A DNA stretch of 63,990 bases, counting the filler, from Caldilineae bacterium (lineage in GTDB: Bacteria > Chloroflexota > Anaerolineae > DTLA01): assembly GCA_037446815.1 (NCBI GenBank). It is 3 parts of 3 records of this genome, joined end to end, with 100 filler letters (N's around TTAATTAATTAA, not from the genome) between each part and the next. Parts side by side here need not be neighbours in the genome. Positions count along the whole stretch, not along the records: positions 26,978 to 53,362 come from JBBIHX010000030.1; 2 more parts are not named here. One strand, 5' to 3'. Of the stretch, positions 26,878 to 53,462 are shown piece after piece. A program made the translations under genes and the position numbers. Numbering within the stretch: position 1 is the first letter of the stretch; every line of letters begins with the position of its first letter. The notes beneath the pieces were generated by a model, which saw only the letters and a program-made list of their open reading frames with translations, was not told the DNA's origin and did not search any database.

Positions 26878-26977
26878 NNNNNNNNNNNNNNNNNNNNNNN
26901 NNNNNNNNNNNNNNNNNNNNNTTAATTAATTAANNNNNNNNNNNNNNNNNNNNNNNNNNNNNNNNNNNNNNNNNNNN
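26878..26977. other. Artificial contig-joining spacer
   Basis: N44-TTAATTAATTAA-N44, giving stops in all six frames. Confidence 0.95.
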
Positions 26978-28990: not shown

Positions 28991-29032
28991 TTGACAAGGT
29001 TATTGACAAGTGCTAGAAAACGGTTGTATAAT
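28991..29032 (+). promoter_or_regulatory. Tandem overlapping sigma70 promoters of the giant surface-protein gene
   Basis: TTGACAAG at 28991 and 29003; TTGACA-17-TAGAAA (TGn) and TTGACA-18-TATAAT. Confidence 0.75.
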
Positions 29033-29296
29033 ACATAACGTAAAGGGGAGTCTGATACTCCGGGGCCTTTTCGCATCATGCGGTTGGGCCGAACGCCTTT
29101 CGGCGCGAGAAGGGCGGTTGGCGCATGGGCGAGAAGGTGGCACCCCGCCGCTTGTTTCCACGAAACGAATACGGACAACTGAAGAAAGCGCCGAGGCACG
29201 GAGGCGCGAGTTCGTGCATGGCCGGGAAGTCCAGCGAAAAGCGCTGCGGCTTCGTTTTGGCCTATGCGCAGACCAGTGCGTACAAGGAGGCCTGTC

Positions 29297-32200
29297 ATGA
29301 GGAAGGCAACATGGTTGGGCGTAGTTGTACTCGTAGCGCTTGCGCTGGCAGTCGGGATGGGGCTGGCGATTCGGCCCGTCCATGCGGCTCCCGGCGTGGT
29401 GCTGGTGAAGACCTCCAGTGCTGGCGGAACGGCCGTGCCGGGCCAGGTCATCCAGTACACCCTGTGGATCACGAACACGGACCCGGCACCCGTAACGTTG
29501 GAGGTGCGAGATGACCTGCCGTCGCAGGTGCTGTACATCGGCGGCAGCGCCGTGGCCGCCTCGCCTCTGACGTACGCCGATGACTTCAACGTGGTCAGTT
29601 GGTCCAACAACACGGGCACCGCCAACTGGGCCGGGCCATGGGTGGAGACCAACGACGCCGTCGGCCCCCATATCGGTGACCTGGTGATTGAGGATGACGC
29701 GGGCAGTTTTCGCCTGCGCCTCCGCGCGGCCAACAAGTCGGTGGATCGCCCTGCCGACACGTCCACGATGCTCCAGCCTACGCTGCGCTTCATCCGCAAG
29801 TTGTGGTCCGTGGAGACCAACGACTGGTTCTACCTGGACGTGTACGACGGCGGCGTGTGGCACAATGGCGTAATGTCCTGGAGCGTGGGCTCCACGCAAG
29901 ATGTGTACATCGCCGAAGAGGTGAACCTGACCGCGTACAAGTCCTCCGCCATGAAGATTCGGTTCCGCACGGGCGCGGCGGTGGCAACCGGCGATGTGAT
30001 GTACGTGGACGACGTGGAAATCTACGACAAGGGCGTTGCCCTGGCCGCGCCGCCGGTCATGACGACCAGCCTGCAGGTGGAGGCCAACGCGACCAAGGTG
30101 GTGCGCCTGTCGGCGGTGGTGTTGCAGCCGCTGTCGGGCGGCACGCTCATGACCAACACCGCAACGGTCAAGAGCGGGGCGGTAACCCTGGCCACGGCCC
30201 AGGTTACCGACGTGCTCCAGGCCCCGATCTTGCAGATCACCAAGAGCGCGATTCCCGCCGTTGTGGAGGCGGGCGAGCGCATCACCTACACGGTGCGGGT
30301 TACGAACACCGGCACCACTACCGCGAACAACGTTTCCATCTACGACCCCGTCCCCGCGAACACGTCCTATGTGGGCGGGAGCGTCCAACTGACCGACCTG
30401 TTGCCCGATGATGTGCCTTCCGTCGGGCCTCGCGCCACGCTGTGGGATTCGGAGCACGCCGGCCTGGTGCGCGCGCGGCTCACCCCGAGCATTGAGATCG
30501 CGGGTGTGGGCGCGCCGCCGTGGATCCTGACCGGCCACACCCTGGCGCCTGGGCAGGCGGTAACGGTTACCTTTGAGGTGCAGTCGCAGGCCCCCTTGAC
30601 CAATGGCCTGGTGATCACGAACACGGCATCGGTAACGTGCACGCAGATCATCACGCCGGTTTCGGCGTCGGCGTACACGACCGTGCACAGCAGCCCCTCG
30701 CTGACCATCACCAAATCCTCGCAGAACCTGAACCCGCCGCAACTGAACCCCGATGACACGTTGCGGTACGTGATCACGCTGACCAACTCGGGCAACGGCA
30801 ACGCCACGGGCACCGTGGTGAGCGACACGCTGCCCGCGAACACGACGTTCGTGCCCGGGAGCGTGGTGATATCGCCCGCGTCGGCGGGCGGAACGCCGGG
30901 AACCCCGCCCAACATCGCCACGGGCATCTCGGTGCCCGGCATGGGCGGCTCGGTAACCGTTCGGTACGACGTGAAGGTGGACAAGCCGTTGCAGAATGGC
31001 ACCGTGATCACCAACGTGGCCGCCGCGCGCTGCACCGAGGCCATGACCTGGGTCGTTTCCTCGGCGGTTACCGACACGGTCGTGAGCGCGCCCTATGTGG
31101 TTGCCACCAAGTCGGCGCAAGACATGACGGGCGGCGCGCCCCTGCGCCCCGGCGATGTGTTGAGTTACACCGTCGTGCTGAACAACATCGGCACGATGAA
31201 CTACTATGACCTGGCGAATCATGAGTTTGTAGATATCCTGCCGCTCACCTATGCCTCATATGTGGCCGGCTCGCACACCGCGTCCAGCGGCACCATCACG
31301 TTCGCCACCGACCGCGTGCGCTGGAACGGCGACCTGCTGGTGGGCCAGCCGGTAACGTTATCCTTCGCCATCCAGTTGAACACGCCGCTGACCAATGGGC
31401 TGACCATCACCAACACGGGCGAGGTGCGCTATGATAGCGACGGCGACGGCGACTACGACGGGCTGGACATCCCAGCCCAGACCAACGCCGTCGTCAGCAC
31501 CGTTACGGCGTCGCCCAACATCGTCGTAACGAAGACATCGGCGGACATGACGGGCGGGGCGCCGCTGCAACCCGGCGATCAACTGCGCTACGAGATCGTG
31601 TTCACCAACACCGGCGACATGAACGCCACCGACATGGTGCTCACCGACACCATCCCCGCGAATACGACCTTCGCCAGCCCGGGCTCCGTGCCCGGTGGCG
31701 GCACGCTGGTGTCCACCAGTCCGGTGTTGCGCATAGAGGGGATTGACCTGGCGGCGGGCGCCTCGGCGTCGTTCGTGTTCCGCGTCAACCTGAACAGCGT
31801 CATCACCGTCGGCACGTCCATCACCAACCGCGCCTACATCTTCTACGACAGCGACGGGGTGGGTGGCAATGACACGTTGGCGCAGTCCAACCTCGTGTCG
31901 GACGCGGTTACAAGTTCGCCGCAGTTCACGCTCACGAAGCAGGCTCACAGCGGGAGCATCGTGCCCGGCCAGCCGGTAACATACACGATTGTGCTGACGA
32001 ACACGGGCAACGCCCCCGCGACGGGCGTCGTAGTGAGCGACACGTTGCCGGTCTCGCTCACGTTCGTGCCCGGCAGCGTTACCATCGCGCCGGCATCGGC
32101 GGGCGGCACGCCTGGAACGCCGCCGCAGATCGCCACGGGCATCAGTGCGCCCGTCGGCCAGCCCATCACGGTTACCTTCCGGGCCACCCTGGCGCGGCCA

Positions 32201-35200
32201 CTGGACAACGGGACGATTATCACGAACACGGCCAGCGTCTGGTGCGCCGAGAACCCGACGCCCGTCGCCAGCGGCCCCGCCACATTCACCGTGAGCAGCG
32301 CGCCGTCCGTCGCGGGCGTGAAGACGATGCAGGACCTGAACGGGCCGCCACTTCGCCCGGGCGACCAGGTGCGTTACACGCTGGTGGTTACTAACACCGG
32401 CACGATGAACCAGGGCGACTATGGCGGCAACGAAATCCGCGATGACTTGCCAACCTATACCTCCATGGTGAGCGGAACCCTGTTCGCCTCGTCGGGCACG
32501 GCAACCTATGACAGCGTGAACCGCCGCGTTCTGTGGAACGGGGCGTTGCCGGTGGACCAGCCCGTTACCATCGTCTTTGACGTGGTGCTGGATAACGCCA
32601 TTCCCAACGGCACCGTGATTCAGAACCGCGGGCGGCTGTACTGGGACGACGACGGCGACAAGGCGAACAACCGCACCACGTACACGCCTTACGTTTCGGG
32701 GACCGTGGTGAGCGCGCCGCTGATGGTCGCGCACAAGACCTCGCTGGACCTGAACGGCGGCGTGTTTGAGCCGGGCGATGTCATCAGTTACACCGTCGTG
32801 ATCACCAATATCGGGAACATGGACCAGCCGGATATACCGTCGCACTTTGAGTTCTACGACCCCATATTCCCGGGCCTCACCTACAAGCCGGGGACGGCAA
32901 CCCAGCCCTGGGGCACGTGGGGCATTGACGGCACGGCGGTACGCTGGACCGGCCCCATCACCGTGGGCGTGCCGCTAACCCTCACCTGGGCCATGGACGT
33001 GGGCATCATCAACCACGGGACGGTGGTTACCAACGCCGCAGAAATCCGCTACGACAGCGACGCCGATGGCGATTGGGACACCAATGACGTGGTCGTTACG
33101 ACGAACACCACACAAGACACGATTTACTACCTGTCGGCGCTGCACGCCACGAAGATTTCGGAGGACATGACGGGCGGCGCGCCGCTCCAGCCCAACGATG
33201 TCATCCGCTACACGGTGATTATCACCAACACGGGCAACCGGCCCGTTACGGGCGCGGTCTTCACCGACGTGGTGCCCGCCAACACCACGTTCCTGAACGT
33301 GCCCACCCTTCCGGGCGGCGCGGTCAACGAGAGCACGGCGTCGCTGGTGAAAATCTCCAACATCTCCATCCCGGCCAACGGCGGCAGCGCCACGATTCAG
33401 TTCCGCGTGCGCGTGAACCTGCCGCTGTGGGATGGTACGGTCATCAGCAACCAGGGGTACGTGCGCTACGACCGCGACGGCCTGGGCACGTATGAGATGA
33501 TCGCCACGGACGACCCGCGCACGCCGACGGTGGGCGACCCGACGCAGGACACGGTAACCGCAGCGCCCGCGTTGGTGGTAACCAAGACGGCGCAGGACAT
33601 GAACGGGGGCAATCTGCGCCCGGGCGACGTGTTGAGTTACACCATCGTCATCACCAACACCGGCACCGAGAATGCGGTCAACGTCGCGGTAACGGATACC
33701 GTGCCTGCCAATACGGCCTTCGTGCCCGGCAGCGTAACGCGCGAGCCGGCATCGGCGGGCGGGACGCTGGGCACGCCGCCGAGCCTGGTGTCGGGCATGG
33801 TGATCACGGCCCAGACATCGGTTACCGTAACCATGGCGGTGCAACTGGACGTGCCGCTGCCCAACGGCGCCCTCATCACCAACACGGCCACGGTGAGCGC
33901 CGACCGCCTGACGCCGATTACCGCGACGGTTACCAATACCGTAACCAGCGCGCCCATCGGCAACGTGGCCAAGACGGGCACGGACGCGAACGGCGGCAAC
34001 GTAGTGCCGGGCGATCGCCTGGACTTCCAGGTGGTGCTGTGGAATACCGGCGACATGAACCAGGGCGACAACGCGGGCGATGAGTTCTGGGATGTCCTTT
34101 CGCCGCATGTAACCCTGGTGCCGGGGACTTTGGCGGCCACTTCGGGGACGGCGACGTACAATTCCGGCGCGCACCGCATTGAGTGGAACGGCCCGGTCAA
34201 CGTGGGCCAGCCCGTTACCATCACCTACAGCGCCGACGTGAACCTGCCGCTGAACAACGGCACCAACGTGCAGAACACGGCGTATTTCACCTATGACAGC
34301 GACGGCGACAACGTCAACGAGACGACTGTAACGTCTTCGGTGAACTTCACGGTGGTGAGCGCGCCGTTGGTGGTTGCGCACAAGTCGTCGCTGGACGTGA
34401 ACGGTTACCCGGTGCGCCCGGGCGACATCCTTAGTTACACCGTCGTCCTGACCAACGTGGGGACGATGGANNNNNNNNNNNNNNNNNNNNNNNNNNNNNN
34501 NNNNNNNNNNNNNNNNNNNNNNNNNNNNNNNNNNNNNNNNNNNNNNNNNNNNNNNNNNNNNNNNNNNNNNACGGACACGGTTACCAGCGCCGCCGTGATT
34601 GCGATAACCAAGTACTCCGAGGACATGACGGGCGGCGCGCCGCTCCAGCCCGGCGATGAGTTGCGCTACACCATCAACTTCACCAACACGGGCGACATGG
34701 ACGCGGTGGATATGGTGCTCACGGATACCATCCCGGCACACACGACCTTCCAGTCGTCTGGCGCGCTGCCTGGCGGCGGCGTCCTCGTCTCCACCAGCCC
34801 GGTGCTCCGCATTGAGGGCATTGACTTGGCGGCGGGCGCGTCGGCTCAATTCCGCTTCCGCGTTACGCTGGACAGCGTGATACCGGTGGGCACGTCTATC
34901 ACCAATCGCGCCTACATCCTCTACGACGCCGACGGCAACGGCTCCATGGAGTCGCTGCGGCAGTCCAACGAGGTGGTTGATCCGGTAACCAGCGCGCCCG
35001 TGCTGGCGATCACCAAGTCGGCGCAGGATCTCAACGGTGCGCCGTTGGTGCCCGGTGATACGCTGCGGTACACGCTTGTGGTCAACAACACGGGCAACGC
35101 CCCGGCGGAGAACACCGTCATCAGCGACACGCTGCCCGCCAACACCATGTGGGCCGACAACATCACCATCAACCCGCCATCGGCAGGCGGAACGCCCGGA

Positions 35201-38200
35201 ACGCCGCCCAACATCGTTACCGGCCTGACGGTGCAGGTGGGCTCGCCGGTTACGGTAACCTTTGACGTAACGGTGAACCGACCGACGGCCGACGGTAGCC
35301 AGGTGCGGAACCGCGCCGATGTGTCGGCAACGGGCGCGATGACGCCGGTGCTCAGCAACCTGGTAACGCGCACCGTGTCGGCTCCCGTGTTTGACATCCG
35401 CAAGGTGAGCGTGCCGATGACGGTAACGCCCGGCTCGCTCATGACCTACACGATTTACATTACCAACACCGGCCCCGTGGCGGCCAATGACATGGGCATC
35501 CTGGACAACCTGCCGCCGTATGTTACGTATGTGCCCGGCAGCGCGGGCCTGAAGGTGCCGACGGTCTACGCCGATGACTTTGAGTCCAACACCTACAGCG
35601 GCAACAGCGGCAACACCAACTTCGCCAGCAACTGGGTGGAGTCGCTGGATGATGGCTCGTCCGCGTCGGGGAACATCCTCCTGACGTCCAACCTAGGCAG
35701 CAGGCGGCTGCGGCTGAACGGCGACCTGACGAACGCGATGACCATCCGGCGCAACGTGGGCAACATTCTCCCGTTCACGTCGCCGCGGGTGGAGTTTGAC
35801 GCCAGGGCCGTTAGCATGGAGGCGGGCGATGAGTTCCGCTTCCAGGTGTACGACGGCTCCGTATGGCAGACGGTTTACACATGGAGCGGCCCGCTGGCCG
35901 AGTCGGGCTACACGACCCGCTCGTTTGACATCACGGGGTACAAGAGCGCCGACCTGCGCATTCGCTTCTGGGTCAGCACGGCCAACGATTCCGGCGACTA
36001 CCTGTACGTGGACAACGTGCGGGTATACGACGCCGGCGCGCCGCTGAACCCGCCGCCCAACTTGGCGACGGGCCTGACCCTGAACCCCGGCCAGGCCATC
36101 ACCGTTACGTTCAACGTTACGGCGACATCGCCGCTGACGAATGGCTTGTCCATCGTCAACGAGGCCGGCGTGTACTGCTACGAACTGCCGGTGCCGCAGT
36201 ACACGACCGCCGCCAGCGTCGTGGACAGCAGCGTGAGCCTGGCCGCGACCAAGATGAGCATTGACCTGAACGGCGGCGATATAACCCCCGGCGACACGCT
36301 GCGATACCAGGTGGTGTTGACGGCGATGGGTTCGGGCATCGCCACGAACACGAGCATCGTTGACCCGCTGCCGGCCAACACGACCTGGCAGAACAACGTC
36401 GTGGTTACGCCGCCGGGCGGGGTGGCGGGGGCGCCGCCCAACGTGCTCACCGGCCTGTCGGTGCCGGGCGGCTCCACGGTAACCGTTACCTACGACGTGC
36501 AGGTGAATGCGCCGCTGGCCGAGGGCACGATCATCACCAACACGGCCACCATCAGCAGCCCGAACATCCCGGCGGCCCTGACCTCTACGGTTACGGATAC
36601 GGTGCGCACCGCGGCGCTGTCCATCGGCAAGGCGGCGGATCCGTCGCCCATCGCGGCCGGCGGCGTGGTAACCTACATCATCACGGTGCGCAACACCGGC
36701 ACGACGACCGCCACCAACGTGGTGGTAACCGACACGCTCCCGCCCGAAGTCACGTACATCCCGGGCTCCACCACCATCGCCAGCGCCTTCGTGTTCGCTG
36801 ACGACTTCGGCTCCGGCGACTACAGCGGCAGCACGGGCACGCAGCCGTGGACAGGCGGCTGGACCGAGTCGCCGGCGGATGGCGGCCCGCTTTCCGGCGA
36901 CATCACCGTGGTGTCCGAGAGCGGGAGCCTGCGCCTGCACGTGAGCGGGACGAGCAAGACCATTCGCCGCCAGGCCGACATCCGCAGCATGTTCTACCCG
37001 GTGTTGGAGTTTGACCGCAAACTGGTGGGCATGGAGAGCGGCGACACGTTCACGCTGGAACTGTACAACGGCAGCGCGTGGACGACGGTGCGCTCGTGGA
37101 ACGGCCCGGCGGATGAGTCCGGCTACACGCATGAGGTGGTGGACCTGAGCGGCTACAAGGCCAGCAACTTCCGCCTGCGGTTTGGCAGCGGGCCGGCCAA
37201 CGCCGCCGATGACCATCTGTACGTGGACAACGTGATCATCTACGATACCGGCGTGCCGGGCAACGCGCCGCCGGTGCTCACCGATACGCTGTCCATCGGG
37301 CCTGGGATGGCGATGAACGTGTCGTTCCAGGGCAACGTCGCCAGCCCGCTGGAGAATGGCTCCACGATCACCAACCGCGCGGGCGCCAGCAGCCAGCAGA
37401 CGCCGACGCCGGTCCTGGCGCAACTGGTGTCCACCATCTCCAGCGCGCCGGACGTGCAGGTTACCAAGACTTCGTTTGACCCCAGCGGCTATCCGCTGCG
37501 GCCCGACGAGGTGCTGAACTACACCATCGTGCTCCACAACGTGGGCACGATGAACCAGCACGACAACGCAGGCCACGAGTTGGTGGACGCGATTCCCACC
37601 AACACGACCTACGTGCCCGGCAGTTTGTTCTACACATCGGGCGCGGGCGCGTACAACGCCGGCCTGAACCGCATAGAGTGGAACGGCGCGGTGAACGTGG
37701 GCCAGCCGGTAACGGTGTCCTTCTCGGTGCGGACGAACCCGCTGCTGGTCAACGGCACGCCCATCTACAACCTGGCCGTGCTGTCCTACGACAGCGACGG
37801 CGACAACGTGAACGACGCCACGCGGGGCAGCCCGGTGATTGACCTCATCACCAGCGCGCCGTTTGTGGTGGCGCACAAGACATCGGTGGATGTGGATGGC
37901 GCGCCGCTGCGCCCGGGCGAGGTTCTGTCGTACACGGTGGTCTTCACCAACGCCGGCGACATGGATCAACTGGACAAGCCCGGCGCCGAGTTCCTGGACG
38001 ACATTCCGGCGAACAGCGCCTACATCCCCGGCTCCGCTTGGGCTTCGTCTGGCTCGGTGTCGTACAACAGCACCTACAACCGCATCGCCTGGAACGGCAA
38101 CTTGCCTGTGGGCGTGCCGGTAACGGTGAAGTTCGCCGTGCAGACGAACAGCCCGCTACCCAACGGGACGGCCATCGTGAACACGGGCCGCGCGTTCTAC

Positions 38201-41200: not shown

Positions 41201-44200
41201 CAGCCGGGCGACGTGCTGCGGTACCGGTTGCGGCTGGAGAATGTGGGCAATCAGAACCAGGCCGACAACCCGGGCAACGAACTGGTGGACGTCATCCCGC
41301 CTAACACGACCTACGTGCCTGGGTCGGCCACGGCGACCAGCGGCATCGTCATCTACAACGGCGGCGCCAACCGCGTGGAGTGGAACGGCGCGGTGAATGT
41401 GGGCACGCCGGTGGACGTAACGTTTGACGTGCAGGTGAACAACGGCCTGGCCAACGGCACGGTCATCGCCAACCATGCCACGTCGTACTACGACGCCAAC
41501 GGCGACGGTTCCAACGAGGCCACAGTGGACAGCAACACGACCGAGGACACGGTGGTGAGCCGCGTTACCATCGTCGCCACCAAGATCTCCGAGGACTTGA
41601 ACGGCGGCCTGTTGGAACCGGGCGATACCTTGCGCTACACCATCGGCATCACCAACACGGGCAGCATGGATCAGCCCAACTCGCCCGCCCACGAGTTGCT
41701 GGATGAGTTGCCGGCGCACACGCACTACGTGCCCGGGTCGCTGTCGGCTACCAGCGGCGCGGCGCTGTTCGTGGACGGCACCACCATCCAGTGGGACGGC
41801 GCGCTGCCGGCGGGCGGCTCGGTAACCATCCTGTTCTCGGTTACCGTGGACGCGGGCACGCCGAACAATACCATCATCTCCAATCAGGGCTGGGTGTTCT
41901 ACGACAGCAACGGCGATGGCTCGGTGAACGAGGACGATACGCCGAAGGTTACCGACGATCCGCGCGTGCCTGGGCCGGATAACCCGACCGAGGACCGAGT
42001 CGGGCACGCGCCGCTGCTGCAGGCGACGAAGGTATCGGTGGATCAAAATGGCGGGTTCTTGGAGCCGGGCGACGTGCTGGTGTACACCATCGTGCTGCAC
42101 AACATCGGCAACGCCGACTTGGTCAACAACGTAGACCCCGAGTTCCTGGACAACATCCCGGCCAATACCACGTACATCCTCGGCACGGCCAGCGCGACGG
42201 TGGGTTCGGTAACTCTGAACCCGACCAACACGCAGTTGCGGTGGGATGGAACGCTAGCGCCCAGCCAGGCGACCGCGATCACGTTCCAGGTCCGCCTGAA
42301 CTCGCCGCTGGCCCACATGACGCAAATCTGCAACCAGGGCACCGTGTACTACGACGGCGATGGCGACGGCACCAACGAGTCCACCGTGCCCACGGATGAC
42401 CCGCGCACGCCGGAGAAGGACGACGCGACGTGCGACACCGTGGTGAGCGGGCCTATCCTCGGCGTGAGCAAGGCGTCGGAGGATGTGGATGGCGGCGACC
42501 TGCTGCCGAGGGACATGCTGCGCTACACGGTTACCATCAGCAACACCGGCAACGACGCGGCGCACAACGTGGCCATCAGCGACACCATGCCCGCCGAAGT
42601 AACGTGGTTTGACAGCGTTACGGTGAACCCGCCGTCGGCAGGCGGCACGCCGGGCACCCCGCCCATGGTCATCACCGGCATGACGGTGCCCGCGGGCGGT
42701 ACGGTAACGGTGAGTTACCTGGTGAGGGTGAACTCGCCGCTGCCCAACGGCACGGTCATCACCAACACGGCGGAGGTCTCGGCCGACAGGATTGAGCCGG
42801 TCTCGGCGACGGTTACCAATGTCGTGTCCAGCGATCACATCCTGGCGCTGTCCAAGGTTGGATCGCCGAAGCCGGTGCCGGCGGGCGACCTGCTGACCTA
42901 CACCATCCAGTACGAGGTCATCGGCGACGAACCTGCGCCTATGGCCGTCATCACCGACAGCGTGCCGGCGAACACCGAGTTCGTCAGCGCCAGCGGCGGC
43001 GTAACGCCCGTGGGCGGCGTCCTGGTGTGGAACCTGGGCGCGCTCACCGCTCCGACGACCGGCGAAGTAACCTTCACGGTGCGGGTGAACACGCCGTTGC
43101 CACGCGGCACGGCCATCGCCAACACCGCTTACTTCCGCGATCAGGATGGCCGCAGCGCCTCGGCCACGGATACCACGCTGGTAACCAGCGACCATACCCT
43201 GGCGCTGTCCAAACTGGACGTGGTGGATCCGGTGCAGGCCGGCGAATTGCTGACCTACACGCTGACGTTGGACGTTGCGGGCAACGAGCCTGCGACCAAC
43301 GTCATCATCTCGGACGGCATCCCGGCGGGCACCACGTTCTACTCGGCCAGCGGCGGCACGTCTATAGAGTCGCCGCCGGTGGGCCAGCCCGGCATGGTGC
43401 GCTGGACGCTGGATTCGGTCAACCCGGGCGAGCCGGCTGTGGTAACGCTGACGGTGCGGGTGGACCTCTCGGTGCCCAACGGCACGACCATCCTGAACTG
43501 GGCCAGCGCGCTGGACGACCAGGGCAGGGGCGCGACCGCCTCGGCGTCCACGCTGGTGGAGAACACCGACGTGAGCATCGTCAAGACGGTTGAGCCGGCC
43601 ACGGTGAAGTCGGGCGACGTAATCACGTACACCATCGGCTACATGAACGCAGGGCCTGCCGCGGCGCTGAACGTGCGCATCACGGACACGCTGCCGTCCG
43701 GCCTGACGTTCGGCGGCGTGGTGCACGCGGAGCCGGGCGTCGTCGGCCCGTCGCAAGTCGGCCAGGACTTCATCTGGTCCGTCGGCACGCTGCCGTCGGG
43801 CGCGTCCGGAACCCTGGTGTTCACGGCGACGGTCGACCCGACCGGCGAGACGGAGCGCACGCTGACCAATGTGGCCCTCATCGGCACGAGCACCGCCGAG
43901 CGCAACTACGGCAACAACGCATCCAGCGCCAGCAACACCCTGCGCCAGGCGATCAACGTGCGGGTCATCAAGCAGTCGTCGGCGGGCGGGTTCGTCCAGC
44001 CGGGCGCCGAGATTCAGTACTCGGTAACCGTGCAGAATATCGGCGATGGCATCGTCACCGGCCTCACGATTTCGGACACGGTGCCGGCGAACACGACCTT
44101 CGTGCCAGGGAGCATCGTGCTGGATCCGCTTGGGTCGGGCACGCCTGGGTTCACGCCGCCGACGCTGGCCAGCAACGTTACCATCCCCATGGGCGGGAGC

Positions 44201-45418
44201 GTAACGGCGCGGTATCGGGTGCGCGTCGCGGCTCCGCTGCCCAACAATACGCCCATCGTGAACACGGCGGAGGCCATGGGCGGCGGGCTGCCCGTGCCGG
44301 TGCAGGCGAGCATCACCGACCTGGTGCAGAGTAGCCACACGCTCAGCCTGCTGAAGGTGGACACGCCCGATCCGGTGCAGGCGGGCGGCCTGTTGACCTA
44401 CACGTTGCAATACCAGGTGATGGGGAACGAGCCGGCCAACGGCGTGGTGCTGACCGACACGCTGCCTGCCCAGGTAACGGTGCAGAGCATCAGCAACGGC
44501 GGCATCCAGAGCGGCAACCAGATTGCCTGGAACCTGGGCGACCTGACGCCGCCCGCGACGGGTAGCGTGAGCGTGGTGGTGCGGGTGAACGCGCCGCTGC
44601 CCAACGGGACGGTGCTGGTGAACCGCGCAACCCTCGCCGACGCCCAGGGCGCTACGGCCAGCGCCACGGCATCCACGACGGTGCAGAGCGCGCCGGCGTT
44701 CAGCGTGTCCAAGTTGGCGCCGGCGACGGTGCGGGCGGGCGACATCCTGACCTACACCATCGTCTTCACCAATACCGGCAATGCCTACGCCACGTCGGTG
44801 GTCATCACCGACCGCATCCCGGCGCACACCGAATGGCATTCGGGCGGGCACTCGCACACGGCCACCGAAGTGCGTTGGAACGTGGCGAGCATGGCTCCGG
44901 GCGTTACGGGCTACGCCGTCTTCTCGGTGCGCGTCCTGCCCGACACGCCGGTCGGGACGGTGATTCTGAACAGCCAGTATGGCGTGCGCTGCGCCGAACT
45001 GCCCACCACGACCGGTGGAGCGCCGCTCGGCGTTACCGTGGCGCCGCCGACGGGCATCACGCTGGAGTACTTCCGGCTCAGGCGCGTCGGGCCATCGGTG
45101 GAACTGGAGTGGCGCACGGCGACGGAAATCAACAACCGCGGGTTCAACGTGTACCGCGGCACAACCGACAACTTTGAGGAGGCGGTGCGCCTGAACAGCG
45201 AGTTGATTCCGGGCCAGGGCCGTGGGCTGGCCGGCGGCGCGACCTACACGTTCACCGACACAGGCGTGGAGCCCGGCCACACGTATTACTACTGGCTGGA
45301 GGACATTGACCTGTACAACAACGTGCAGGCGCGCATGCTCCGCTCCATCGGCGTGTACACGTACATCCCGGACGAGGCACGGAAGCACACCTTGCGCTTG
45401 CCGTCGGTGTGGCGCTAG
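29297..45418 (+). CDS. Giant (~5,400 aa) secreted DUF11-repeat surface protein / putative adhesin
   Basis: AAGGAGG RBS; signal peptide ending VHA-A; about 34 repeats of K...PGD.L.YT....N.G...D.(L/I)P...ITN.A; five inserted YADDF...YVDNV.IYD domains; C-terminal LEW.TATE.NN.GFNVYR...YTFTD...YYYWLED.D domain; ends RLPSVWR. It contains a 100-N gap, so the true length is uncertain. Confidence 0.9.
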   Translation: MRKATWLGVVVLVALALAVGMGLAIRPVHAAPGVVLVKTSSAGGTAVPGQVIQYTLWITNTDPAPVTLEVRDDLPSQVLYIGGSAVAASPLTYADDFNVVSWSNNTGTANWAGPWVETNDAVGPHIGDLVIEDDAGSFRLRLRAANKSVDRPADTSTMLQPTLRFIRKLWSVETNDWFYLDVYDGGVWHNGVMSWSVGSTQDVYIAEEVNLTAYKSSAMKIRFRTGAAVATGDVMYVDDVEIYDKGVALAAPPVMTTSLQVEANATKVVRLSAVVLQPLSGGTLMTNTATVKSGAVTLATAQVTDVLQAPILQITKSAIPAVVEAGERITYTVRVTNTGTTTANNVSIYDPVPANTSYVGGSVQLTDLLPDDVPSVGPRATLWDSEHAGLVRARLTPSIEIAGVGAPPWILTGHTLAPGQAVTVTFEVQSQAPLTNGLVITNTASVTCTQIITPVSASAYTTVHSSPSLTITKSSQNLNPPQLNPDDTLRYVITLTNSGNGNATGTVVSDTLPANTTFVPGSVVISPASAGGTPGTPPNIATGISVPGMGGSVTVRYDVKVDKPLQNGTVITNVAAARCTEAMTWVVSSAVTDTVVSAPYVVATKSAQDMTGGAPLRPGDVLSYTVVLNNIGTMNYYDLANHEFVDILPLTYASYVAGSHTASSGTITFATDRVRWNGDLLVGQPVTLSFAIQLNTPLTNGLTITNTGEVRYDSDGDGDYDGLDIPAQTNAVVSTVTASPNIVVTKTSADMTGGAPLQPGDQLRYEIVFTNTGDMNATDMVLTDTIPANTTFASPGSVPGGGTLVSTSPVLRIEGIDLAAGASASFVFRVNLNSVITVGTSITNRAYIFYDSDGVGGNDTLAQSNLVSDAVTSSPQFTLTKQAHSGSIVPGQPVTYTIVLTNTGNAPATGVVVSDTLPVSLTFVPGSVTIAPASAGGTPGTPPQIATGISAPVGQPITVTFRATLARPLDNGTIITNTASVWCAENPTPVASGPATFTVSSAPSVAGVKTMQDLNGPPLRPGDQVRYTLVVTNTGTMNQGDYGGNEIRDDLPTYTSMVSGTLFASSGTATYDSVNRRVLWNGALPVDQPVTIVFDVVLDNAIPNGTVIQNRGRLYWDDDGDKANNRTTYTPYVSGTVVSAPLMVAHKTSLDLNGGVFEPGDVISYTVVITNIGNMDQPDIPSHFEFYDPIFPGLTYKPGTATQPWGTWGIDGTAVRWTGPITVGVPLTLTWAMDVGIINHGTVVTNAAEIRYDSDADGDWDTNDVVVTTNTTQDTIYYLSALHATKISEDMTGGAPLQPNDVIRYTVIITNTGNRPVTGAVFTDVVPANTTFLNVPTLPGGAVNESTASLVKISNISIPANGGSATIQFRVRVNLPLWDGTVISNQGYVRYDRDGLGTYEMIATDDPRTPTVGDPTQDTVTAAPALVVTKTAQDMNGGNLRPGDVLSYTIVITNTGTENAVNVAVTDTVPANTAFVPGSVTREPASAGGTLGTPPSLVSGMVITAQTSVTVTMAVQLDVPLPNGALITNTATVSADRLTPITATVTNTVTSAPIGNVAKTGTDANGGNVVPGDRLDFQVVLWNTGDMNQGDNAGDEFWDVLSPHVTLVPGTLAATSGTATYNSGAHRIEWNGPVNVGQPVTITYSADVNLPLNNGTNVQNTAYFTYDSDGDNVNETTVTSSVNFTVVSAPLVVAHKSSLDVNGYPVRPGDILSYTVVLTNVGTMXXXXXXXXXXXXXXXXXXXXXXXXXXXXXXXXXXTDTVTSAAVIAITKYSEDMTGGAPLQPGDELRYTINFTNTGDMDAVDMVLTDTIPAHTTFQSSGALPGGGVLVSTSPVLRIEGIDLAAGASAQFRFRVTLDSVIPVGTSITNRAYILYDADGNGSMESLRQSNEVVDPVTSAPVLAITKSAQDLNGAPLVPGDTLRYTLVVNNTGNAPAENTVISDTLPANTMWADNITINPPSAGGTPGTPPNIVTGLTVQVGSPVTVTFDVTVNRPTADGSQVRNRADVSATGAMTPVLSNLVTRTVSAPVFDIRKVSVPMTVTPGSLMTYTIYITNTGPVAANDMGILDNLPPYVTYVPGSAGLKVPTVYADDFESNTYSGNSGNTNFASNWVESLDDGSSASGNILLTSNLGSRRLRLNGDLTNAMTIRRNVGNILPFTSPRVEFDARAVSMEAGDEFRFQVYDGSVWQTVYTWSGPLAESGYTTRSFDITGYKSADLRIRFWVSTANDSGDYLYVDNVRVYDAGAPLNPPPNLATGLTLNPGQAITVTFNVTATSPLTNGLSIVNEAGVYCYELPVPQYTTAASVVDSSVSLAATKMSIDLNGGDITPGDTLRYQVVLTAMGSGIATNTSIVDPLPANTTWQNNVVVTPPGGVAGAPPNVLTGLSVPGGSTVTVTYDVQVNAPLAEGTIITNTATISSPNIPAALTSTVTDTVRTAALSIGKAADPSPIAAGGVVTYIITVRNTGTTTATNVVVTDTLPPEVTYIPGSTTIASAFVFADDFGSGDYSGSTGTQPWTGGWTESPADGGPLSGDITVVSESGSLRLHVSGTSKTIRRQADIRSMFYPVLEFDRKLVGMESGDTFTLELYNGSAWTTVRSWNGPADESGYTHEVVDLSGYKASNFRLRFGSGPANAADDHLYVDNVIIYDTGVPGNAPPVLTDTLSIGPGMAMNVSFQGNVASPLENGSTITNRAGASSQQTPTPVLAQLVSTISSAPDVQVTKTSFDPSGYPLRPDEVLNYTIVLHNVGTMNQHDNAGHELVDAIPTNTTYVPGSLFYTSGAGAYNAGLNRIEWNGAVNVGQPVTVSFSVRTNPLLVNGTPIYNLAVLSYDSDGDNVNDATRGSPVIDLITSAPFVVAHKTSVDVDGAPLRPGEVLSYTVVFTNAGDMDQLDKPGAEFLDDIPANSAYIPGSAWASSGSVSYNSTYNRIAWNGNLPVGVPVTVKFAVQTNSPLPNGTAIVNTGRAFYDADGDGTTNEAVALAGPITDTITSAPRIEITKAAVDVNGAPLEPGDTLAYDITITNSGNMNAVGMVFTDTIPAHTAYLSVENLPAGAVLAATSPELRITNLTVNAGTAVTFRLNVVLDIPLVNGTVISNQGMLAYDADGNGSNESLAPTDDPSTPAINDPTVRTVVSGPVLVVTKTSNDLNGAPLGPSDVLQYQVVIRNDGKANATGVVVSDTVPAFTTWQDAVTIDPASAGGVIGAPPLIVSGLTVAAQQSVTVTYNVQVSAGVADGTPIVNRVQVQCAEDPTWRTAVLTDTAYAPVLQISKVGEPNPVEAGAVLTYTILVSNTGGYPTGNVSLADTLPAQVAYVPGSTVLAVTTTYADDFESATYSGNTGTHNWASNWVEPAGDGGALAGDVGILSESLSRRLHVSGASKYAWRQADLTPFLKPTLRFDRKLVSLDGASDYFRVEVWNGVAWTPLQTWTGPADDGAYYTETFDLSPFIVSGARIRFRSGPSNSVDDHLYVDNVMIYDEGVPGGAPPVLATGLTLQPRTTLRATFQVQVNSPLPDGTTLINSASVTSQHFPTPIVATAMNTVHSAPDIRVDKTSLDVNGGLLAPYDVLRYQVVIQNAGNADATNVNLTDELPPYTTWVGNVSIAPVSAGGIPGTPPNVATGMTVRGGESVTVTYEVRVMRPVMDGTDIVNTASVSSLQAPGPFTDTITDTVHSPTLLIGKGGAPQPVEAGGLVTYTIAITNSGTLTATGVVVSDTLPPQITYVPGTSTWRLGATYADTFSIYSYSENDGTVNWASNWIEQNDDGLPTSGNVGMVWDAGSLRLMVQNVNRAIWRQADISYFYNPKLRFDRRILGLEAGKAFYLDVYNGSTWQVAQTWFGPLDEATYSTIVVDLSAYKSTATRIRFRAGTTLDSADSMYVDNVEIYDEAQAGGSPGSLVSGATIPPGASLVAQLTGRVASPLPNGTMLPNTGWVRCTEWPEGVSSTFNSQVHSTTVLQVTKSSQDVNGGDLQPGDVLRYRLRLENVGNQNQADNPGNELVDVIPPNTTYVPGSATATSGIVIYNGGANRVEWNGAVNVGTPVDVTFDVQVNNGLANGTVIANHATSYYDANGDGSNEATVDSNTTEDTVVSRVTIVATKISEDLNGGLLEPGDTLRYTIGITNTGSMDQPNSPAHELLDELPAHTHYVPGSLSATSGAALFVDGTTIQWDGALPAGGSVTILFSVTVDAGTPNNTIISNQGWVFYDSNGDGSVNEDDTPKVTDDPRVPGPDNPTEDRVGHAPLLQATKVSVDQNGGFLEPGDVLVYTIVLHNIGNADLVNNVDPEFLDNIPANTTYILGTASATVGSVTLNPTNTQLRWDGTLAPSQATAITFQVRLNSPLAHMTQICNQGTVYYDGDGDGTNESTVPTDDPRTPEKDDATCDTVVSGPILGVSKASEDVDGGDLLPRDMLRYTVTISNTGNDAAHNVAISDTMPAEVTWFDSVTVNPPSAGGTPGTPPMVITGMTVPAGGTVTVSYLVRVNSPLPNGTVITNTAEVSADRIEPVSATVTNVVSSDHILALSKVGSPKPVPAGDLLTYTIQYEVIGDEPAPMAVITDSVPANTEFVSASGGVTPVGGVLVWNLGALTAPTTGEVTFTVRVNTPLPRGTAIANTAYFRDQDGRSASATDTTLVTSDHTLALSKLDVVDPVQAGELLTYTLTLDVAGNEPATNVIISDGIPAGTTFYSASGGTSIESPPVGQPGMVRWTLDSVNPGEPAVVTLTVRVDLSVPNGTTILNWASALDDQGRGATASASTLVENTDVSIVKTVEPATVKSGDVITYTIGYMNAGPAAALNVRITDTLPSGLTFGGVVHAEPGVVGPSQVGQDFIWSVGTLPSGASGTLVFTATVDPTGETERTLTNVALIGTSTAERNYGNNASSASNTLRQAINVRVIKQSSAGGFVQPGAEIQYSVTVQNIGDGIVTGLTISDTVPANTTFVPGSIVLDPLGSGTPGFTPPTLASNVTIPMGGSVTARYRVRVAAPLPNNTPIVNTAEAMGGGLPVPVQASITDLVQSSHTLSLLKVDTPDPVQAGGLLTYTLQYQVMGNEPANGVVLTDTLPAQVTVQSISNGGIQSGNQIAWNLGDLTPPATGSVSVVVRVNAPLPNGTVLVNRATLADAQGATASATASTTVQSAPAFSVSKLAPATVRAGDILTYTIVFTNTGNAYATSVVITDRIPAHTEWHSGGHSHTATEVRWNVASMAPGVTGYAVFSVRVLPDTPVGTVILNSQYGVRCAELPTTTGGAPLGVTVAPPTGITLEYFRLRRVGPSVELEWRTATEINNRGFNVYRGTTDNFEEAVRLNSELIPGQGRGLAGGATYTFTDTGVEPGHTYYYWLEDIDLYNNVQARMLRSIGVYTYIPDEARKHTLRLPSVWR

Positions 45419-45431
45419 CCTCAAGGACACA

Positions 45432-45471
45432 TTCGCAGGGGGCGGCGGGCATGCCCTGTCCGCCCCCGCGG
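45432..45471 (+). terminator. GC-rich hairpin between the giant gene and the C25 gene (terminator or RNA-stabilising stem)
   Basis: GGGGGCGG...CCGCCCCC stem, no clear U tract. Confidence 0.4.
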
Positions 45472-45518
45472 TTCATCTGGAATCGGGACGCATCACGGCT
45501 CCCGGCAGGGAGAGGCTC

Positions 45519-48512
45519 ATGAATCGGAAACGGATACTGGGGTGCACGATTGCGGCGCTGCTCATGAGCGTCGTTGCGGTGCAGGCCGCGCAGCCTGAAT
45601 CATCCTGGGGGCGCGAACTGAAGCCCGAAGTCCGCGTGGTGGCGGGCAGCGCCGATGCCATCGTGCTGGACATCTTCACGCCGCGCCCGACGGTGGAGAC
45701 GGTGGCGTGGGAGGGCGAAGTCTGGCAGCGCGTGAGCATCCCCGGACTGGCGACAGCCGCGGAACCAGGCGCGCCGGAACTGCCCGTGCAGAGCGCCATG
45801 CTGGGCATCCCGCCCAAGGCCGCGTGGCAGGTGCAGGTGGAAAGCACCGACCGCATCCTGCTGGAAGGGCCGTATCGGCTCCTGCCCGCCCCGACGGTGC
45901 GCGCGGATTACGCGGATGGGGAGGCGCGTACCGAGCAGGCCCGAACCCCCGATGCGCGCATCTACGGGGCGTCGGCGTTCTACCCGGTGGACGTGGTGGA
46001 AGTCGCCGGAAGCGGCTACCTGCGCGACCAGCGGTTCCTGGCGCTGCGGGTGCATCCGGTGCGATACAATCCGACAACCGGCCAGGTAGAGTGGTATCAG
46101 CGTATGCGGGTGCGCGTCGCGTTGAGCGGCGGAGACCTGGCCGCGTGCGATGGCGAGCGGGACGGCTACTTTGAGCCGGTGCTCCGCGCGACTATCCTCA
46201 ACTACGAGCAGGCGAAGGCGTGGCGCTCGCGGGAGCCTTCCACCGTCGCCGCGCAGGCGGGGCCTATCTGCGGCATCGGCCCGCAGTACAAGGTCATCGT
46301 CGGAGCCGAGGGCCTGCACGAAATCACCTACGCGGACCTGGTGGGGGCGGGCTTTCCCGTTACCTCGGTGGACCCCGCGCGGCTCACCATGTGCTACATG
46401 GGCCAGGAAATCGCCATCCAGGTTACGGGGCAGGAGGATCACATTCTGAATCCCGCTGACCGCATCCTTTTCTATGCGGCGATCCCATACAGCCGCTACA
46501 CGAACACCGGCACGTACTGGTTGAGTTTCGGCGCGGCGGACGGGAAGCGGATGCAGACGAAGAGCGGGGCTGTCAGTCCCGCGACGCCCTACACGCCGAC
46601 GCGCACGGTTACGGCCGTCGCCGAGCGGTCGCTGGAATATGACAGCAAGTACGCCTCGCCCAAGGGCGATCACTGGTTCTGGGACACCCTTCACTGGCTG
46701 GACGTTGCGCCGTACACGCCGCGCACCTACACGCTCCAGTTGACGGAGCCGCCTGCCGGAGTCGCCAACGCGGTCCTGCGCGTCGGGCTTCAGGGGCGCG
46801 ACGCCAGCCTGCACGAATTGAACTTCACGTTCAACGGCCTATCGCTGGGCAGCCGACAGTGGGCGGGCGAGGAGTATCGGACGCTCTCGTTCCTCGTCCC
46901 GACCACGGCGCTGCGCCTGGGGGCCAACACGCTGACCCTGTCCAGCAAGGACCGAGGCGCGACGCTGGACTACGTGTGGCTGGATTTCTTCAGCGTGGAG
47001 TACAGCGCGCGGAACGTAACGACGGATGGCAAGGAGTTCACGTTCACGGGCCAGAGCGGGCCAGCGCGGTATTGGATTACCGGCTTCGCCCAGGGCGATG
47101 TGGCCGTGTACGATGTCTCGGACGTGCGCAACGTGGCGCAGATTACGCATATCCCCGCCGAGCCGGTCAGTTCGGTGCGGTTGCCGTCGGTGTGGAAGCG
47201 CGACGGCGCGAGCGCGGCGGATGCCGAAGAGGCCCTCGTTGCGGGGCGGCAGGATACGTTTGCGCAGTCGGCGGCGGCCACCTATGGCGTCGCGTTCCAG
47301 AGCAACGAGGCATCGGCGCGCACGTACTGGGTGGGGACGGGCGCGGCAATCCGCCGGCCTTTGTCCATCGCGGCAGACCCCATCACGAACTGGCGTTCGC
47401 CGTCCCTCGGCGCGGACTACCTCATTATTACTGACCCGGCGCTGGCAACCGAGGCCAATCGCTTGGTAACCCACCACCAGAACCAGGGGCTTCAGCCGCT
47501 GGTGGTGTACGTGCAGGACATCTACGACGAGTTCAACTACGGCCAGGCCGATCCCGCCGCCATCCGCGCCTTCTTGCAGTACGCCTATGACCAATGGAAC
47601 ATGAGGCCGTCCTACGTGCTCCTCCTGGGCGACGGTAGTTATGATTTTCTGAATTACAAAGGCTACGGGCTGCGCGAGATGGTGCCGCCGCTCCTGGCTC
47701 CGGTGGACAAGACCATGGGCGAGACGGCCACTGACAACCGCTACGTGGCGGTGCACGGCGATGACATCCTGCCGGATATGTACATCGGCAGGATTCCCGC
47801 GGCCAATGCGGACCAGGCCAAGACGATGGTGGACAAGACTCTTGCGTATCCTACGGCTCCAGGCGGCGCGTGGGACAGGGAGATTATCCTCGTGTCGGAC
47901 AAACCCGACGCACCCGACTACAACAACTTCATCCAGGCGTCCGATGAGATGTACGAGTGGCTGGGGATGGCGGCTCCCACGTACACCCGAACGCGCGTGT
48001 ACTACGATCCGTCCGCGAGCAGCGCGCCCTGGGTGTACACCAGCATCGGTGCGGCGAGGACGGCCATGTTCGCCGAGTTCAACCAGGGCGCGCTGTTCTG
48101 GAACTTCATGGGGCACGCCTCGGAGCATCAGTGGGTGGCCGACCGCCTGCTGCACGTGGATGACGTGCCCGCGCTGACCAACGGCCTGCGCCTGCCGGTG
48201 CTGCTGGAGATGACCTGCCAGACGGGGCAATTCCACCTGGCGCAGGCTTCACCCGCCGCCGAGTGTTTGGCCGAGCAGTTGATTCGCCGCGCCGGCGGGG
48301 GGACGGTCGCCAGTTGGTCGTCCACGGGGTGGGGGATGGCTTCGGGGCACGATGTGATGCAGCAGGGGTTCTACGAGGCGATCTTTTCGGGCGGCCTGCG
48401 GCAATTGGGGCCTGCCGTGGCGATTGGCACGGTTCATGCATACAACGCAGGGTACAATGACCTGGTGGACACGTTCGTGTTGTTCGGCGACCCTGCTCTG
48501 TTTGTGCGGTAG
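45519..48512 (+). CDS. Secreted C25 (gingipain-family) cysteine peptidase with PorU-like architecture
   Basis: Signal peptide; C25 propeptide-like PGAPELP; YKV.V...GL..IT..DL...G and DRILFYA...YWL; ADYLII, DIYDEF..G, YVLLLGDG, D.YIGRIP; catalytic GHA and MTC; ends LFGDPALFVR. Confidence 0.9.
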   Translation: MNRKRILGCTIAALLMSVVAVQAAQPESSWGRELKPEVRVVAGSADAIVLDIFTPRPTVETVAWEGEVWQRVSIPGLATAAEPGAPELPVQSAMLGIPPKAAWQVQVESTDRILLEGPYRLLPAPTVRADYADGEARTEQARTPDARIYGASAFYPVDVVEVAGSGYLRDQRFLALRVHPVRYNPTTGQVEWYQRMRVRVALSGGDLAACDGERDGYFEPVLRATILNYEQAKAWRSREPSTVAAQAGPICGIGPQYKVIVGAEGLHEITYADLVGAGFPVTSVDPARLTMCYMGQEIAIQVTGQEDHILNPADRILFYAAIPYSRYTNTGTYWLSFGAADGKRMQTKSGAVSPATPYTPTRTVTAVAERSLEYDSKYASPKGDHWFWDTLHWLDVAPYTPRTYTLQLTEPPAGVANAVLRVGLQGRDASLHELNFTFNGLSLGSRQWAGEEYRTLSFLVPTTALRLGANTLTLSSKDRGATLDYVWLDFFSVEYSARNVTTDGKEFTFTGQSGPARYWITGFAQGDVAVYDVSDVRNVAQITHIPAEPVSSVRLPSVWKRDGASAADAEEALVAGRQDTFAQSAAATYGVAFQSNEASARTYWVGTGAAIRRPLSIAADPITNWRSPSLGADYLIITDPALATEANRLVTHHQNQGLQPLVVYVQDIYDEFNYGQADPAAIRAFLQYAYDQWNMRPSYVLLLGDGSYDFLNYKGYGLREMVPPLLAPVDKTMGETATDNRYVAVHGDDILPDMYIGRIPAANADQAKTMVDKTLAYPTAPGGAWDREIILVSDKPDAPDYNNFIQASDEMYEWLGMAAPTYTRTRVYYDPSASSAPWVYTSIGAARTAMFAEFNQGALFWNFMGHASEHQWVADRLLHVDDVPALTNGLRLPVLLEMTCQTGQFHLAQASPAAECLAEQLIRRAGGGTVASWSSTGWGMASGHDVMQQGFYEAIFSGGLRQLGPAVAIGTVHAYNAGYNDLVDTFVLFGDPALFVR

Positions 48513-48593
48513 AATCCGCCGGGGCGGGGGCGCGAAACCCGCCCTGGGGGACTTACGATCGGTTCCAGGGTAGTGCCTTGAGGGAGGAAGGAT

Positions 48594-49043
48594 ATGTTGA
48601 CGATGAACTGGAAGAGGGTGGCCCTGGTGGGGCTGTTCGTGGCCGTCTGGGTGGTAGCGGCGGGGCTCGGGCCAGGTGGCGAGCCTGCGGGATCCGCGCT
48701 GGCCCTGGGGTTCACGTCCACGCCGACGTTCACGCCCGAGGCCCCGACGGAGACGCCCGCCCCGCCTACGGCGACGGCGACTCCTGTCCCGCCGACGGCG
48801 ACCGCCACGCCGGTCCCGCCCACGGCGACGGCGACTCCTGTCCCGCCGACCGTTGCGCCGCAGCCCACGCAGCCGCCCCCGCAACCGACGCAGCCGCCGG
48901 CTCCACAGCCGACCGCGACGCCGGTCGCCGCGCCGGCCCCGTCGGTCCCGAAGACCGGCTCGGGCCTGCTGGGGGCGATTCTGGCGGGCGCGCTGATTCT
49001 GATCCTGTTCGGTGCCAGGCGGGTTCGCACGGCCTCTCGGTAG
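48594..49043 (+). CDS. Small Pro/Thr-rich protein with an LPXTG-like (VPKTG) sorting signal
   Basis: GGAGG RBS, signal peptide, PPTATATPV repeats, then VPKTG + TM helix + RRVR tail. Confidence 0.85.
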   Translation: MLTMNWKRVALVGLFVAVWVVAAGLGPGGEPAGSALALGFTSTPTFTPEAPTETPAPPTATATPVPPTATATPVPPTATATPVPPTVAPQPTQPPPQPTQPPAPQPTATPVAAPAPSVPKTGSGLLGAILAGALILILFGARRVRTASR

Positions 49044-49187
49044 GGAAGCGGGCGGCCGTCAACCCGACCGCCCCGCTCGTTCCATCGCGCGGGTTTCGTC
49101 GCGCGCGGATAACGTCTGCGGCAGTCGCCACCGCCGCCGATGTCTCTCGTGGCATCGGCGGCTTTTGTTTGGGGCGGGGCCTCGGGT

Positions 49188-53362: not shown

Positions 53363-53462
53363 NNNNNNNNNNNNNNNNNNNNNNNNNNNNNNNNNNNNNN
53401 NNNNNNTTAATTAATTAANNNNNNNNNNNNNNNNNNNNNNNNNNNNNNNNNNNNNNNNNNNN
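53363..53462. other. Artificial contig-joining spacer
   Basis: N44-TTAATTAATTAA-N44. Confidence 0.95.

Follow-up and report, generated by a model that had tools for sequence, protein, structure and literature searches.

To our knowledge, PorU is the only enzyme of the C25 peptidase family known as a sortase, and only in the Bacteroidota's type IX secretion system (T9SS); nor do we know of a reader for the YLP-box tag, which NCBIfam lists as NF050076 (sort_motif_YLP) and itself calls a 'YLP-box putative sorting motif'. PorU-like proteins are widespread in the Chloroflexota, which lack a T9SS. The review PMC10202324 describes PorU as a Cys/His peptidase with two activities, cleavage of C-terminal signals and transpeptidation; it is also a substrate with a signal of its own, and its latency is due to a second PorU molecule, a hairpin of which blocks the active site. 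The window analyzed here is a whole stretch of 63,990 nucleotides (filler included) from the Caldilineae bacterium assembly GCA_037446815.1 (3.19 Mb in 265 contigs; completeness, 93.6%; contamination, 2.9%), in which the contigs C29, C30 and C98 are placed end to end. The locus in question lies wholly on C30 (26978-53362) and encodes a giant secreted adhesin, a PorU-like C25 peptidase (P0001) and a small Pro/Thr-rich (PT-rich) stalk protein with a predicted wall anchor. A heptapeptide tag at the extreme C-terminus of the giant was found again inside a disordered loop of the peptidase.

The giant ends with ...HTLRLPSVWR, and the peptidase carries the heptapeptide RLPSVWK, which is the tail RLPSVWR with Lys for Arg. 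Of the genome's 29,018 six-frame open reading frames (ORFs) with 60 aa or more, two only, the giant and the peptidase, held the pattern RLPS[LIVM]W[RK]. A degenerate DNA pattern scanned in five genomes of the genus recovered the loop copy in 5/5 and the giant-tail copy in 3/5; this pattern cannot match the tail variant RLPFVWR of loci L003 and L039. In-frame copies across these five genomes were confined to the giant and the peptidase. A third candidate copy, RLPTVWN (C35:9533-9552, with the same place hit in G401-G404), was rejected because it is off-frame within a minus-strand gene of 1990 aa, an artefact showing that degenerate DNA patterns also respond to conserved genes read out of frame.

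Both copies keep the peptide across six loci despite synonymous codon changes (TTG/CTG/CTA, TCG/TCC and GTG/GTA/GTC). In the peptidase, the tag opens the sole long disordered stretch of the AlphaFold2 (AF2) model, residues 553-585, a loop inserted in the beta-sandwich preceding the catalytic domain; the loop is present in 11 of 48 homologs, all close orthologs, and missing from the remaining 37. Within it the tag is conserved and the Ala-rich remainder is variable. The tag has basic residues on either side, and the similarity of the two copies extends weakly over ~17 residues (IPxE...RLPSVW[KR]). The loop tag was kept in C25 orthologs down to ~67-70% identity (RLPSIWK, RLPSVWA), and C-terminal fragments of giants at 67% and 61% identity end with RLPVIWR and RLPFIWRR, respectively. 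An Ile thus stands at the same place in the loop of P0012 (RLPSIWK) and in the tails of P0195 (RLPVIWR) and P0193 (RLPFIWRR), a mere lead given that the contigs are unlinked. The codon comparison showed that the tag is, to judge from these loci, under selection in both proteins. Conserved as it is on flexible parts of two neighboring proteins, this motif is a short linear signal, not a structural element and not chance, and most likely one for recognition or cleavage. The recurrence of the giant's tail heptapeptide in a disordered loop of the peptidase lends support to an enzyme-substrate link between the neighbors. What is new here is that a private variant of the tag recurs inside the peptidase, that there is evidence for selection acting on it, and that the operon includes a sortase-anchored stalk.

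The preliminary description of this DNA had presented the giant as a ~5,400-aa secreted repeat protein. The secreted, repetitive character was borne out by a Sec-type N-terminus, by at least 28 stretches of DUF11 (PF01345; E-values, 3e-75 and 2e-180) with DUF7507, DUF7927 and DUF7619 besides (Pfam), and by 31 stretches of TIGR01451; the isopeptide-forming fimbrial domain TIGR04226 was also matched (E-values, 8e-29 and 2e-43). The length is uncertain because the ORF was read through a gap of 100 N, and the start given earlier, 29297, is the twelfth codon (Met) of an ORF that opens at 29264. Five modules of ~150 aa, which begin with YADDF or YADTF (e.g. TYADDFESNTYSGNSGN...YVDNVRVYD), are interspersed among the DUF11 runs, one of them with a sub-threshold match to a choice-of-anchor J domain (28.4 bits against a cut-off of 30).

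The last 140 aa of the giant matched no Pfam family, and tblastn found no paralogs of this C-terminal domain in the genome; a phmmer search of 1.84 billion representatives returned 13,856 proteins at E<=1e-3. The AF2 model of this region is a beta-sandwich followed by a low-confidence tail of ~30 residues, and Foldseek matched it to FN3 domains. Among the 150 best hits, the FN3-like domain just precedes several kinds of C-terminal signal, namely T9SS type-A C-terminal domains (CTDs), a hydrophobic helix with an Arg-rich end, RLLPARPRP-type ends and, very often, ...RIYLPLVxR-stop. At least four kinds of end follow this pre-anchor domain in the set P0041-P0190, including an undescribed-looking ...RLLPARPRPxP... 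class and an end composed of PTAVTL, a hydrophobic helix and Arg-rich residues.

The giant had been described as having no C-terminal transmembrane helix, LPXTG or recognizable SLH anchor, a description that is incomplete. Its tail aligns column by column with 21 YLP-box tails, in which the Pro is invariant, and it has the form of the YLP box: the protein is secreted, the tail is ultrashort and stands at the extreme C-terminus, its core is L-P and its last residue basic, and the same FN3-like domain precedes it as in many YLP-tailed proteins. It differs in having Arg for Tyr/Phe and Ser-Val-Trp for Leu-Val-x, and the second copy is internal, in the peptidase loop. Judged by these features, the tail is a divergent form of the catalogued YLP-box tag, and the giant is predicted not to be anchor-less. 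The YLP consensus is loose ([YF]-L-P-[LVM]-[VI]-x-[RK]), and at least 10 other ORFs of this genome have canonical YLP-type tails, usually after PT-rich linkers.

The peptidase gene begins 100 nt behind the giant's stop codon, at an ATG (45519) preceded by GGGAGAGG, a good ribosome-binding site; the contiguity claimed earlier holds for this junction only. P0001 matched Peptidase_C25 (PF01364) with 319 bits against a cut-off of 23 (E-value, 6.2e-95). The catalytic His866 (in MGHAS) is kept in 48/48 aligned homologs and Cys900 (in EMTCQ) in 46/48, and both align with the catalytic region of RgpB, Kgp and PorU, as expected from the intact dyad noticed before. The PorU model NF033707 covers residues 257-994 at profile positions 8-730 of 1095 with 276.8 bits, under the cut-off of 420. 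The AF2 model (mean predicted local distance difference test score (pLDDT), 87; predicted template modelling score, 0.87) has latent PorU as its top Foldseek match (6za2, chain B; E-value, 3.8e-30; 862 aligned columns), followed by the catalytic domains and prodomains of RgpB and Kgp (1cvr, 4ief, 4rbm and 5mun), and phmmer against PDB sequences likewise placed PorU (9e-17) ahead of RgpB (2.6e-11). Profile, phmmer and fold ranks agree with the proposed PorU-like middle region and place P0001 closer to PorU than to the gingipains, and P0001 was confirmed as a member of C25 whose modeled fold is closest to that of PorU, yet which falls outside NCBIfam's PorU.

P0001 thus shares with PorU a secreted C25 catalytic domain with a His/Cys dyad and a long multi-domain region before it, and its relatives have C-terminal tags of the kind that the presumed substrates bear. 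In contrast to PorU, it has no domains past the catalytic domain and no T9SS CTD: its terminus, LFGDPALFVR, is at the end of the catalytic domain, as already described, and TIGR04183 was negative. It also has a gingipain-type prodomain, and its D809 falls in the column of RgpB residue 163, a column that is Ser in PorU and Asp/Glu in 40/48 homologs. RgpB Asp163 sets the Arg specificity of that enzyme. The likeness to RgpB and Kgp, in prodomain, catalytic domain and this acidic residue, is limited by ~20-22% identity, an extra PorU-like middle region of ~400 residues and the lack of an IgSF domain, adhesin domains or a CTD. Two more secreted C25 paralogs are encoded in the genome, on C175 (1759-4182, minus strand) and C133 (5779-8115, minus strand), without the PorU-like middle region and with repeated C-terminal domains; a third C25-like domain ends a longer ORF on C7 (27506-30124, minus strand), whose signal peptide is not obvious.

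SprA, PorV and GldM gave no match in this 93.6% complete genome, and in the control genomes only PorV was matched, below threshold, in Bacteroides. The T9SS type-A CTD (TIGR04183) was found nowhere in the genome by a model that was silent in the control genomes too. LpxC and Omp85 were missing as well, while diderm control genomes were positive in 4 and 7 of 14, respectively. The expectation of an organism without T9SS or lipopolysaccharide (LPS), which also sets P0001 apart from PorU, holds as a prediction from these searches, the context being monoderm-type.

The giant, peptidase and stalk genes are bracketed by a promoter-like and a terminator-like site, and the same scans found neither kind of site between them; we therefore read the three genes as one putative operon. 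The promoter-like site is ~230 nt 5' of the giant's ATG, and shuffles gave a mean of 0.1 sites as good as this one. A divergent ROK kinase gene lies upstream of the operon and mutS lies downstream. The interval of the preliminary description ended at 49043, a real stop codon, but that of a third gene (48594-49043) which its text did not mention. The product of this gene, the stalk, is composed of a signal peptide, the conserved LGFTSTPTFTPE, a PT-rich linker, VPKTG, a hydrophobic helix and RRVR. Across loci, the layout runs from a conserved LGFTSTPT[FY]TPE through a PT-rich linker and [SA][VI]PKTG to a hydrophobic helix followed by a basic end. A tripartite sortase signal was recognized in VPKTG, a 20-residue Gly/Ala/Leu/Ile-rich hydrophobic stretch and RRVR, and the genome has two sortases (PF04203 matches) and three LPXTG-like ORFs only; the LPXTG model TIGR01167 reached 12.6 bits on residues 119-140 of the stalk, under its cut-off of 15.9. 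The stalk gene follows the peptidase gene in 5/5 orthologous loci and in L040, whose peptidase is 61% identical, and was found in none of 75 distant loci, i.e. solely in the close clade.

This arrangement resembles Gram-positive pilus and adhesin loci in that the giant matches an RrgB-type isopeptide domain (TIGR04226) and the operon joins a cysteine transpeptidase-like enzyme to a small LPXTG-type wall-anchored protein in a genome with sortases. It differs in its enzyme, which is no sortase but a member of family C25 in clan CD, and in that the giant lacks an LPXTG signal and the small protein a pilin domain. Coordinates are collected in Table 1.

Table 1. Features of the giant-peptidase-stalk locus (window coordinates).
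Feature	Position	Strand	Basis or remark
Promoter-like site, sigma-70-type	29003..29032	+	TTGACA-18-TATAAT, 12/12 match
Giant secreted DUF11/isopeptide-domain adhesin, ORF	29264..45418	+	5384 codons as read; length uncertain, gap inside
Scaffold gap of 100 N within the giant ORF	34471..34570	.	
FN3-like 'pre-anchor' domain of the giant	45053..45325	+	phmmer, AF2, Foldseek
C-terminal tag RLPSVWR of the giant, YLP-box-like, on a low-confidence flexible segment	45395..45415	+	
PorU-like C25 cysteine peptidase P0001, 997 aa	45519..48512	+	
Propeptide_C25 domain, residues 35-231	45621..46211	+	Pfam; Foldseek matches RgpB and Kgp prodomains
Disordered peptidase loop, 33 residues (553-585), before the catalytic domain	47175..47273	+	pLDDT <50
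Internal tag RLPSVWK, peptidase residues 554-560	47178..47198	+	
Peptidase_C25 catalytic domain, residues 634-994	47418..48500	+	His866, 48114-48116; Cys900, 48216-48218
Stalk protein gene, 149 aa, PT-rich	48594..49043	+	VPKTG at 48945-48959
Intrinsic-terminator-like hairpin	49133..49162	+	12-bp stem with 9 G-C pairs, then T run

The reading that we favor, tentatively and at somewhat less than an even chance, makes this very peptidase the reader of the tag, which would serve as a signal for cleavage or recognition. The peptidase would cut its own loop, and the cut halves would stay together through the one beta-sandwich that they share; the loop cut would create a tagged C-terminus like that at the real ends of distant homologs. 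The same enzyme would also process the tail of the giant, so that the two would be a private enzyme-substrate pair. This is preferred because a machine reading a loose consensus leaves a private variant in two neighbors unexplained, because PorU, the closest solved relative, is both signal peptidase and signal-bearing substrate, because a cut in the loop would keep the halves joined and yield a tagged C-terminus, and because the column of D809 is acidic and the tag is flanked by basic residues. What we infer is that the peptidase reads the tag, at which position it would cut, and that it would act either by plain cleavage or by PorU-like transfer to an envelope acceptor. A complex prediction with peptidase residues 240-997 and the last 140 aa of the giant, made with alignments, scored 0.00 and 0.00 in runs that had no controls, which weighs neither for nor against this reading.

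Several results weigh against the peptidase as reader. A cut behind the last Arg is impossible at the tail because the giant ends one residue after the Trp. NF050076 did not match the giant's C-terminal region at E<=1, whether 140 or 100 residues of it were scanned; its cut-off is 15 bits, and true YLP tails reached 11-13 bits in the same scan. The loop tag decays in orthologs at 57-60% identity (RLPSVPKQ and RLPAATRD) and is therefore not indispensable. The giant-C25 pair is present in five related loci, but linkage to giant repeat proteins is rare outside the genus: of the 75 distant loci in which a C25 ORF was called, just 8 had a same-strand neighbor of at least 700 aa, these neighbors including a DUF11/SdrD adhesin with a YLP-like tail (L082) and a subtilase with a YLP tail (L043). 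The loop-bearing ortholog was likewise confined to the genus (4/4 genomes and this one). Homologs of P0001 as such occurred in 51/401 sampled Chloroflexota genomes (E<=1e-20) and in 34/61 relatives (E<=1e-30), so the setting of a PorU-like C25 protein without T9SS is not unique but common in the phylum. A single Anaerolineae genome can hold as many as 11 matches, frequently arranged in tandem, which fits a diversified family of secreted proteases.

Much of this would be expected if the giant and the peptidase were both cargo of some further machine that reads YLP-box-type tags, with the peptidase a surface-tethered degradative or maturation protease that shares the tag through its destination only. 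This explanation, the main rival and in our view only a little less likely than the favored one, remains strong. YLP tails occur on many unrelated secreted proteins, at least 10 of them in this genome, and on a subtilase, an M14 carboxypeptidase and LTD-domain proteins at other loci. C25 paralogs are many and often in tandem. YLP-type tails were found on 17 of 61 distinct distant C25 homologs with an intact 3' end, which makes these look like cargo; for comparison, they were found on 15/252 neighboring ORFs and on 25/5650 six-frame ORFs of this genome. Speaking for a C25 reader instead, P0001 homologs were present in 32 of the 41 genomes with at least five matches to the YLP hidden Markov model (HMM), the unpublished G227 being one of the 41, and in 19/360 of the remaining genomes, a tally confounded by relatedness and by C25 proteins counting as YLP proteins. 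Six of the eight published YLP-rich exceptions have at least a weak PF01364 match; the other two, G279 (99% complete, 4 contigs) and G266 (96%), have none and carry three genuine YLP tails each, so a C25 enzyme is not generally required for such tails. The six-frame scan with this 11-position HMM is noisy and serves for coarse tallies only, since control genomes were positive and one of the three matches listed for the own genome lies within a histidine kinase.

On the other side, a loose machine does not explain why two neighbors have a private variant, with Arg for Tyr and Ser-Val-Trp, when the other tails in the same genome are canonical, and we know of no candidate for it. Carriage of a tag is also compatible with being the enzyme, as PorU is both enzyme and signal-bearing substrate. 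A sortase as the reader of YLP tails was considered and rejected as non-discriminating: 38/41 YLP-rich genomes have a sortase against 280/401 overall, and G076, G012 and G044 have none.

It is unlikely, though conceivable, that the tag stays uncut and is a handle by which both proteins dock non-covalently on a common receptor, such as the conserved N-terminal peptide of the stalk or a wall polymer. Docking would agree with a conserved short motif on a flexible segment in both proteins, with the presence of a wall-anchored stalk in the operon whose sole conserved part besides the linker is LGFTSTPT[FY]TPE, and with the fact that most YLP tails stop exactly at a basic residue, like ligands with a free C-terminus. 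Against it, the copy in the peptidase is internal, so that docking cannot depend on a free carboxylate unless a cut opens the loop; no binding domain was identified, and the stalk gene, with 0/75 in distant loci, was found in the close clade only.

With the peptidase as reader, a relay to the stalk can be drawn, which we regard as doubtful. The PorU-like peptidase would form an acyl-enzyme at RLPSVW[KR] of the giant and of its own loop, the new C-terminus would be ligated to the N-terminal amine of the mature stalk (LGFTSTPTFTPE), and a housekeeping sortase would fix the stalk to the wall through VPKTG. The sole Lys of the mature stalk is inside VPKTG, and therefore the N-terminal amine would be its one other primary amine. 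Such a relay, if true, would have a clan-CD protein ligase do the job of a pilus sortase and would provide the first enzyme for the YLP-box family.

Least probable is that the heptapeptide is a functionless leftover of recombination between neighbors and the peptidase a plain extracellular protease by the adhesin: the weak similarity over ~17 residues (IPxE...RLPSVW[KR]) would fit a copied segment, but the peptide is kept at both sites and in six loci through synonymous codon changes and within an otherwise variable loop, and conservation of this kind, in a disordered loop, points to selection on the motif.

The locus is a clean test case, with a defined enzyme, two sites on which it might act and one potential acceptor. 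Should the peptidase be the tag's reader, a route by which monoderm Chloroflexota sort giant adhesins would be explained, and a new peptide ligase might be gained; if not, it would be one more tagged surface protease, and the tag machinery would have to be sought elsewhere. A literature search on the YLP-box retrieved no paper on the motif, searches on C25 peptidases of Anaerolineae and on sorting signals of Chloroflexota retrieved nothing relevant, and one on PorU and C25 in Chloroflexi nothing relevant among the papers listed. A term search in Haft's myxosortase preprint found no mention of YLP, Chloroflexi or PorU.

Some further observations concern the distant C25 homologs. A recurrent gene set lies upstream of them in L045, L058, L086 and L104, with a radical SAM/SPASM protein of ~370 aa and a P-loop protein of 227-337 aa with weak HPr-kinase-C or AAA-type matches (uncalled in L104); an LTD-domain protein of ~550-570 aa belongs to the set in L058, where it has a YLP tail, and in L086, where an NTP_transf_5 nucleotidyltransferase is added. 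The set has the look of a cassette for peptide modification that goes with this C25 family. A sortase gene directly follows the gene of a YLP-tailed, PorU-like C25 protein in six genomes that belong to one genus of family f38 (G099:C7, which is L025; G048:C1; G060:C65; G144:C2; G189:C1; and G223:C1). In L025, the C25 protein ends with ...QLYLPLTVAAP, and a sortase ORF of 302 aa begins ~110 nt later. In L120 (G279:C2:396672-396698, minus strand), the YLP-box-like GRIYLPLVQR stands just past a signal peptide and is N-terminal, not C-terminal.

The contigs of the window are joined by linkers of 44 N, TTAATTAATTAA and 44 N at 26878-26977 and 53363-53462, and C29 has an additional 100-N scaffold gap (9320-9419). 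C30 breaks off within the gene of another secreted protein (51945-53362, plus strand), one with repeated PT-rich linkers, whose C-terminus and any tag there lie outside the contig.

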